NCBI RefSeq assembly: GCF_003334385.1 | Contig: NZ_QOWN01000102.1 | Source of the DNA: Escherichia coli | GTDB lineage: Bacteria > Pseudomonadota > Gammaproteobacteria > Enterobacterales > Enterobacteriaceae | Direction: 5' to 3' (one strand) | Length of the DNA stretch: 2,144 nucleotides | In this document: one piece after another, positions 1,581 to 1,998 of the stretch | Layout of the letters: each line of letters begins with the position of its first letter | Position numbering within the stretch: the stretch's first letter is position 1 | The notes under the pieces: generated by a model | The model's database searches: none | What the model was told of the DNA's origin: nothing | The model's input: only the letters and a program-made list of their open reading frames with translations | Position numbers and translations under genes: made by a program

Positions 1581-1985
1581 GATTAAATTAAAGTTAGGAC
1601 GAAGTAATTGCAGGTGGAAATAAATCCATGGTGACGTGTGGCAATGGCTATTAGATGTTATGGTGTGATGGGTTTTGGTGATTTAAGAGCTAAGTTAGAT
1701 TGCCTTATGAAAAAGTATGGTTATATATTTAATGATGTGTATCATATATTTAAATAAAAAACGGTTCTCTCTTGTCAAGATAGTAATAGGATAGATTATT
1801 GTGTTGATAAATATAATTAAGAGTCTACTTTGTTGATTTTAGAAGACTTTGGAGCAGGGAAAGAACATCAGAAGTACACTTTTTGTACTAAATAATTCGC
1901 GGTAAATGTTCAATAATTGAGATATTCCTTATTACCTAAAACTATTTTTCATAGCTTATACATGATCAAATACTCCTTACATAAT

Positions 1986-1993
1986 TAAGGAGA
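1986..1993 (+). promoter_or_regulatory. Shine-Dalgarno (TAAGGAGA) for the transposase ORF
   Basis: AAGGAGA at 1987-1993, 5 nt upstream of ATG 1999. Confidence 0.6.
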
Positions 1994-1998
1994 ACAAA

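Follow-up and report, generated by a model that had tools for sequence, protein, structure and literature searches.

Positions 1581–1998 of the analysed Escherichia coli DNA, a stretch of 2,144 bases that is referred to as the window throughout, very probably consist of three joined pieces: the tail of an Rhs toxin/immunity cassette, a dead orphan immunity gene truncated by an insertion sequence, and the 144-base non-coding left end of this insertion sequence, ISEc1. The GC content of the region was 0.297 (0.24–0.39 in 100-nt windows), in agreement with the very AT-rich spacer reported by the first-pass annotation, in comparison with 0.61 for the Rhs core part (1–420), 0.37 for the 125-aa immunity gene and 40% for the whole ISEc1. 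The AT-richness is thus not special at this site, being in line with the neighbouring accessory DNA, i.e. the immunity gene and ISEc1. No ORF of at least 40 aa was present inside 1581–1998, and the earlier view that the region holds no convincing gene was correct. The longest ORF, 39 aa from a GTG (1638–1757), encloses an ATG-initiated frame (1644–1757), which had been placed exactly as 37 codons plus stop and described as lacking a recognisable ribosome-binding site; a good Shine-Dalgarno (SD) sequence was indeed absent upstream.

The window was found at 100% identity in many complete E. coli chromosomes, where RHS, hypothetical protein and ISEc1 transposase are annotated. In strain 300709 (NZ_CP025903, locus L001), it lies inside a partly degraded type VI secretion (T6SS) cluster with the gene order Hcp, 5′-truncated RHS, 125-aa hypothetical protein, ISEc1-family ISAs1 transposase, “RHS element protein dsORF-h1”, and a second RHS. 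Within L001 1–8000, tssJ and tagH were partial, IS1A was located beside Hcp, and the RHS gene whose 3′ end lies in the window had lost its N-terminus. The toxin cassette is probably not deliverable in strain 300709.

The first ORF of the window was annotated as RHS in every matching genome, and its residues 2–137 matched the NCBIfam models RHS_core and Rhs_assc_core; a match to Pfam RHS was also obtained. The toxin tip (roughly residues 140–382) and the 125-aa protein returned no family match in Pfam or NCBIfam; the latter is presumed to be the immunity protein from the position of its gene directly after the Rhs tip, and together the two (window 700–1530) look like an uncharacterised toxin/immunity pair. 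A 347-bp segment (471–817), which encodes a Gly/Ala-rich linker in front of the toxin domain, was 100% identical to L003 3541–3887 (NZ_CP015228), an orphan Rhs fragment that starts at an ISEc1 right end and runs into a different toxin domain and a 164-aa immunity gene. Judged from the sequences, this looks like a shared pre-toxin linker behind which toxin modules have been swapped.

Table 1. Features of the 2,144-base window, with coordinates counted from its first base.
Feature	Position	Strand	Evidence
3′ end of Rhs core gene and variable C-terminal toxin tip	5–1153	+	NCBIfam, Pfam, genome annotation
125-aa presumed cognate immunity gene, WP_001077738.1	1153–1530	+	ORF, annotated hypothetical protein
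Non-coding tail of the Rhs-CT/immunity module; separates it from the following gene	1531–1643	+	113 bp 100% identical to L023
Palindrome/RNA hairpin with 15-bp stem, just upstream of 1581	1537–1580	+	Fold and shuffles
Pseudogene: first 70 codons and one base of an orphan CdiI-type immunity gene (PF28203), cut by ISEc1	1644–1854	+	Homology
Older, strongly diverged pseudogene block; mosaic junction somewhere in 1683–1751	1752–1854	+	Window versus L023
First in-frame TAA (CCA, Pro, in intact alleles)	1755–1757	+	Comparison with intact alleles
Second in-frame TAA (TCA, Ser, in intact alleles)	1818–1820	+	Comparison with intact alleles
ISEc1 (H-rpt) left end: terminal inverted repeat CAGGG and 144-nt transposase leader	1855–1998	+	Multi-copy alignment
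6-bp hairpin AGTACA/CTTTT/TGTACT, 19 nt inside the IS	1873–1889	+	Fold, copy alignment
7-bp hairpin CTCCTTA/CATAAT/TAAGGAG: SD AAGGAG (1987–1992) paired with upstream anti-SD	1973–1992	+	Fold, alignment
5′ part of ISEc1 (ISAs1-family) transposase gene	1999–2144	+	ATG at 1999; annotation and NF033564

Search with 1531–1998 against 5,426 complete E. coli genomes gave about 19,000 hits spread over 5,309 genomes, and all but 122 of these genomes matched solely from query positions 318–325, i.e. from window 1848–1855 onward. On the basis of an alignment with 14 other ISEc1/ISEc5-type copies from 11 loci (RhsB/C/E-type loci, O157, K-12, a nested copy, and a PAAR/VgrG locus), all copies shared CAGGGAAAGA from exactly 1855 and had unrelated flanks to the left. 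A copy of roughly 80% identity, carried by an Enterobacter plasmid, ended at the same left terminus. At the other end, TCTTGCCCTG follows the transposase stop in L001, so that the element runs from CAGGG at 10855 to CCCTG at 12145, in total 1291 bp, which was also the element length in L003, L013, L014 and L015. This size, with a single 1137-bp ORF, falls within the range of about 1.2–1.5 kb for ISAs1 elements, and the full 378-aa transposase of L001 matched NF033564 (transpos_ISAs1) with 416 bits (cut-off 70) and an E-value of 8e-125. The left terminal inverted repeat, which the first-pass annotation had expected somewhere in the spacer, is thereby placed at 1855.

The first ten bases of the two ISEc1 ends match at nine positions. 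As the repeats are short and imperfect, the ends were missed by an inverted-repeat finder, whose top pair I1 (10765–10789/12017–12041) was spurious, and they were taken from the multi-copy alignment instead. Independent placement of both ends was obtained from L003 950–3541, where one ISEc1 is nested in another: on either side of the inner copy (1151–2441, 1291 bp) stands the same 10-bp sequence, CAGACAAGCC, as a perfect target duplication.

With these boundaries, the idea that the whole spacer is one long non-coding left end of an ISAs1-family element, which the first-pass annotation had named as the outcome that would refute its view, has practically no probability left. The region is uniformly AT-rich and located directly upstream of the transposase gene, as this idea would have it; however, the sequence common to IS copies from more than eight unrelated contexts begins at 1855, the 1291 bp from CAGGG to CCCTG represent the full element as confirmed by the 10-bp duplication at the nested copy, and the 1531–1854 region occurs without any IS on the contig L023 (see below). 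Only 144 of the 418 bases are IS sequence.

The 1291-bp H-rpt was reportedly described in RhsB by Hill and co-workers in the 1990s. The window copy corresponds to the ISEc1/H-rpt of E. coli Rhs loci in transposase family, length, CAGGG/CCCTG termini, and location downstream of an Rhs tip and immunity gene. Nothing essential differs, apart from the lack of a target-site duplication and an A at 1876 in the window copy. H-rpt elements are a classical component of Rhs loci, and their transposition was stated as not observed in a genome paper (PMC3032704); the nested copy in L003 is direct sequence evidence that H-rpt/ISEc1 transposes, and its perfect duplication hints at a recent event.

No target-site duplication was found around the window copy, with GACTTTGGAG as its left and GGTGGATGGA as its right flank, nor around the other Rhs-linked ISEc1 copies examined. 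Since the element type makes such a duplication, the flanks of these copies have apparently been rearranged after insertion, and for the window copy we infer a later rearrangement on the right side of the IS. An internally deleted derivative was observed in E. fergusonii GCA_020034915 (L010 6650–6720), where the ISEc1 left end CAGGGAAAGATTATCAGAGGTACACTTTTTGTACT is fused to 3′ element sequence about 300 bp downstream of an intact PF28203 gene.

Upstream of the IS, positions 1639–1852 aligned at 83% DNA identity with the initial 214 nt of an intact 360-nt gene, WP_000020701.1 (119 aa), which on L003 lies between a further orphan Rhs-CT/immunity pair upstream and the following RHS gene. Over 70–72 codons, the protein identity was 81% to P0006, the intact 117-aa PF28203 protein encoded on L023, and 67% to P0001. 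Translation of 1638–1856 in the family frame gave VAMAIRCYGVMGFGDLRAKLDCLMKKYGYIFNDVYHIFK, KTVLSCQDSNRIDYCVDKYN and ESTLLILEDFGA, separated by two stops and collinear with the family without indels. The complete frame of 117–120 codons is accordingly broken three times, by the two stops and by the IS junction (1854/1855), which comes after codon 70 of the 117 in P0006. Two family-invariant residues have been replaced (A68 by Leu, E70 by Asp), as has the near-invariant D54 (by Tyr). The window and P0006 share an allele with a shifted start, from which S2, I3 and D4 are absent. The ATG of P0006 corresponds to window 1644 and its first 37 residues equal the 1644–1757 ORF, which, as judged from this correspondence, is the N-terminal stump of the immunity gene and not a random frame.

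The earlier suggestion that the spacer may include remnants of former cargo was thereby right as to a remnant, which is the dead immunity gene, and wrong as to its being cargo, as the gene belongs to the Rhs locus and not to the IS. The 3′ part of the orphan gene gave no match within 20 kb around the locus. In a comparison aimed at relaxed selection, differences by codon position were 15/11/12 between the window and L003 and 16/9/15 between two intact alleles, i.e. the distribution was no flatter in the window.

Relatives of WP_000020701.1 were identified in Escherichia, Yersinia, Serratia, Pantoea, Pectobacterium, Klebsiella and Snodgrassella, all tagged with Pfam PF28203, the name CDI_Immunity_Comp being taken from precomputed Pfam tags only; local Pfam-A and NCBIfam scans of the intact 119-aa protein gave no match. 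In four assemblies (Pantoea by protein source name), a CDI_Immunity_Comp gene was located 10 nt after a CdiA gene with a PF18451 CdiA_C domain. Single-sequence search of PDB with the intact 119-aa protein was empty, and a profile of 19 PF28203 members matched CdiI in PDB 4G6V chain B with an E-value of 2.3e-8, the best part being residues 1–40. This CdiI is the immunity partner of the tRNase toxin of Burkholderia pseudomallei 1026b (PMC9086364). The Pfam tag, the adjacency to CdiA and the 4G6V profile match together indicate that the intact gene is a CdiI-type immunity gene which occurs as an orphan in Rhs loci. The window copy is likewise an orphan, since it lies after another immunity gene instead of a cognate toxin; the Rhs tip in front had no PF18451 match. 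The likeness to the 1026b protein, an immunity factor against a PD-(D/E)XK tRNase, thus lies in the profile match and in the intact relatives that follow CdiA with PF18451; the similarity is distant, and unlike the 1026b system, the window contains a broken 70-codon stump beside an Rhs toxin of a different, unclassified type.

According to Poole et al. 2011 (PMC3150448), orphan modules in CDI/Rhs regions are often disrupted by IS elements, and most orphan cdiI genes have the appearance of being expressible. The window resembles these modules in having an extra CDI-type immunity gene after the main Rhs-CT/immunity pair, and differs from them in that the orphan has no toxin fragment in front and is dead on account of two stops and the truncation. 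With IS-disrupted orphan modules (PMC3150448) and H-rpt in Rhs loci (PMC3032704) already described, the feature is of a known kind.

The uninterrupted arrangement is known solely from L023, a single 1361-bp contig from an automatic assembly (Logan, sequencing run ERR11042557), which is itself a mosaic. On it are found the end of the Rhs tip and the 125-aa gene known from the window, a spacer identical to 1531–1643, and the intact gene for P0006. The window and L023 differed at 5 of 1000 positions over 752–1751 and at 26 of 103 over 1752–1854 (about 75% identity). Within 1752–1854, L023 was 97% identical to L003, and the window was 70–77% identical to all three intact alleles. According to this switch of identity, the pseudogene is a mosaic of a young 5′ part, continuous with the cassette, and an old, decayed 3′ block linked to the IS. 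L023 was in turn a three-way mosaic with a window-like 5′ part, an L003-like middle and an E. fergusonii-like 3′ part; this points to frequent recombination within this small immunity gene family, or possibly to an assembly chimera in L023. Intact relatives of the pseudogene exist irrespective of L023, as the L003-type gene was present in 31 of the 5,426 complete E. coli genomes.

The relic was found in 122 of the same genomes. In all of these it ends at the same base, is annotated in none, and is at least 99% identical over the stretch. More sensitive search with 1531–1855 gave three classes: the whole stretch (122 genomes), 1531–1605 only (about 300), and 1639–1852 under a hypothetical protein (few). 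Among the carriers, the cassette was located at more than one chromosomal site, i.e. the aspV/T6SS region and the pptA/RhsE region (L005). At the latter locus (NZ_CP162190, L005 4139/4137), a 109-bp deletion has removed window 1670–1778 and the ISAs1 transposase is also truncated; in another strain, IS1 has removed everything left of 1817. These losses fit with the relic being dispensable DNA.

A live small gene at 1638/1644–1757, yielding a mini-protein of 37 or 39 codons from the immunity-protein N-terminus, could be argued from the frame being open in 122/122 carriers, from the identity of the 36 residues after Met to those of P0006, and from residues 1–40 being the part of the family profile that best matches the 4G6V CdiI. 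This is nevertheless considered highly improbable. Two-thirds of the protein are missing, and with them most of the positions invariant in the family (Y59, E62, L66, A68, E70, S78, F80, V84, D86, K87, F89 and L112), no genome annotation calls the frame, which lacks a good SD sequence, and one strain has lost most of it with 1670–1778. Recent common descent, and not selection, accounts for the near-identity of the carriers; at 99% identity or more among the 122, conservation is uninformative on selection of the stump, which is most probably silent. Function of the 37-residue stump as a micro-protein, or of the AT-rich relic as a regulatory buffer, e.g. as a nucleoid-protein platform setting how much Rhs-operon transcription reaches the transposase, is regarded as extremely unlikely.

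The remaining, leftmost piece is the non-coding tail, which on L023 separates the same 125-aa immunity gene from the intact orphan gene. The segment 1531–1605 alone occurred at 87% identity in the class of about 300 other E. coli genomes, with an ISAs1 element directly after 1605; in L004, which is one of these, the tail with its palindrome comes after a near-identical immunity gene and runs straight into the ISAs1 element. Being kept behind a near-identical immunity gene, the segment belongs to the Rhs-CT/immunity module. The following positions 1606–1625 (CAGGTGGAAATAAATCC) were considered as a solo IS end and rejected; the match is short and diverged, and is contradicted by L023, which has these bases without a nearby IS.

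The palindrome in the tail begins seven bases after the immunity gene stop, and its predicted hairpin was very stable (−21.2 kcal/mol, z = −4.2, with 0/200 shuffles folding as well). In the 87%-identical L004 variant, the stem is retained by one-sided changes (C-G to U-G, U-G to U-A). This structure may stabilise the Rhs/immunity mRNA at its 3′ end or mark a site of processing.

Two further hairpins were located in the ISEc1 leader. The first-pass annotation had pointed out the AGTACA-CTTTT-TGTACT hairpin at its exact position; it was weak, no better than expected by chance (−4.9 kcal/mol, z = −2.0, 9/200 shuffles folding as well), and absent from most ISEc1 copies, as its left arm reads AGTTCA in five other copies, which breaks the stem, and an unrelated CGCT(G/A)C in six. 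It is the A at 1876 that completes the six base pairs in the window copy. The hairpin is probably fortuitous and deserves no weight. The second hairpin, which pairs the SD sequence of the transposase gene, was more stable (−8.0 kcal/mol, z = −2.7, 3/200), and 11 of the other 14 aligned copies have it without change. One further ISEc1 copy had a C-to-T change in the left arm, with U-G pairing still possible, and the three copies that lose the hairpin have a damaged SD and are annotated pseudogenes or fragments. The roughly 80%-identical Enterobacter plasmid copy has an equivalent CCTTAA/TTAAGG pairing.

In IS10 and IS50, hairpins that hide the ribosome-binding site protect the element from outside transcription. 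The ISEc1 leader is similar in that AAGGAG pairs with an upstream CTCCTT, a structure that would form in transcripts entering from the Rhs operon; by hiding the SD, it could keep such read-through from being translated into transposase. Unlike in IS10 and IS50, this role is predicted from sequence for ISEc1. If the hairpin works in this way, it would explain the quiet transposase of an IS that is permanently located downstream of a transcribed toxin operon.

A transposase promoter was not located by promoter scan: the sole candidate near the ATG, TATACA-17-CATAAT (1957–1985), had a 9/12 match, no better than chance, and nothing usable was found in the literature on promoters and ends of ISEc1/ISAs1. 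One paper seemingly on ISEc1 in T6SS loss actually concerns ISEc12. The leader of the window copy was separated from the common ISEc1 subfamily by five substitutions (1938, 1941, 1944, 1950 and 1953), all in one codon phase and synonymous when read in phase with the transposase ATG (CTA AAA CTA TTT TTC ATA), a frame closed by TGA at 1963 and 1918. This phase pattern may have arisen by chance (about 1 in 80) or may be left from an N-terminus that used to be longer.

With the very stable palindrome just upstream and the moderate hairpin at 1973–1992, the stretch could be taken for a structured regulatory or small RNA, either a product of the immunity-gene 3′ UTR or an antisense to the transposase leader. 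Such an RNA is nonetheless very unlikely: a scan of the whole window against Rfam 15 with E-values up to 1 gave no match in 1581–1998, shuffled sequence folds as well as the whole IS leader (z = 0.14), the 1873–1889 hairpin is not conserved, and the middle of the stretch is decaying coding sequence. Neither promoter-like nor terminator-like sites were enriched. Four sigma-70-like sites were found versus 4.3 expected from shuffled sequence, no intrinsic terminator was called on the plus strand in 1400–2144, none of the three hairpins (1537–1580, 1873–1889, 1973–1992) is followed by a T-run on this strand, and the sole terminator-like call on the minus strand was the SD hairpin itself.

Taking the region as cassette tail, truncated orphan immunity gene and ISEc1 end, a plausible course of events can be proposed. 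A T6SS-linked Rhs cassette, with its toxin tip, 125-aa immunity gene and 113-bp non-coding tail with a stable hairpin, would once have been followed by a second, orphan CdiI-type immunity gene (PF28203). The 1291-bp ISEc1 now sits at codon 71 of this gene, which has lost its 3′ two-thirds. Presumably, a cassette with an intact orphan gene and an old relic truncated by the IS underwent homologous recombination inside this gene, whereby the relic and its IS became linked to the present cassette, as would be typical of “rearrangement hot spot” loci; the right side of the IS was probably rearranged thereafter, as suggested by the absent target-site duplication. The parts likely to be functional today would be those of the IS only, i.e. 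the terminal repeat at 1855, which from the way DDE insertion sequences work would be the binding site of the transposase, and the leader, the hairpin of which would damp translation of incoming Rhs-operon transcripts.

In place of 418 bases of unexplained AT-rich spacer, three named pieces are obtained, which matters little beyond annotation. Beyond the known kind of feature, the remnant has been identified, the IS boundary has been fixed exactly, a mosaic junction has been recognised, and the 6-bp hairpin has been downgraded. The ends of ISEc1 at this locus are now base-exact, and a pseudogene unrecorded by annotation is flagged in 122 complete E. coli genomes. The locus is a further worked example of how spare immunity genes accumulate in Rhs loci and are disrupted and rearranged there through recombination and IS insertion.
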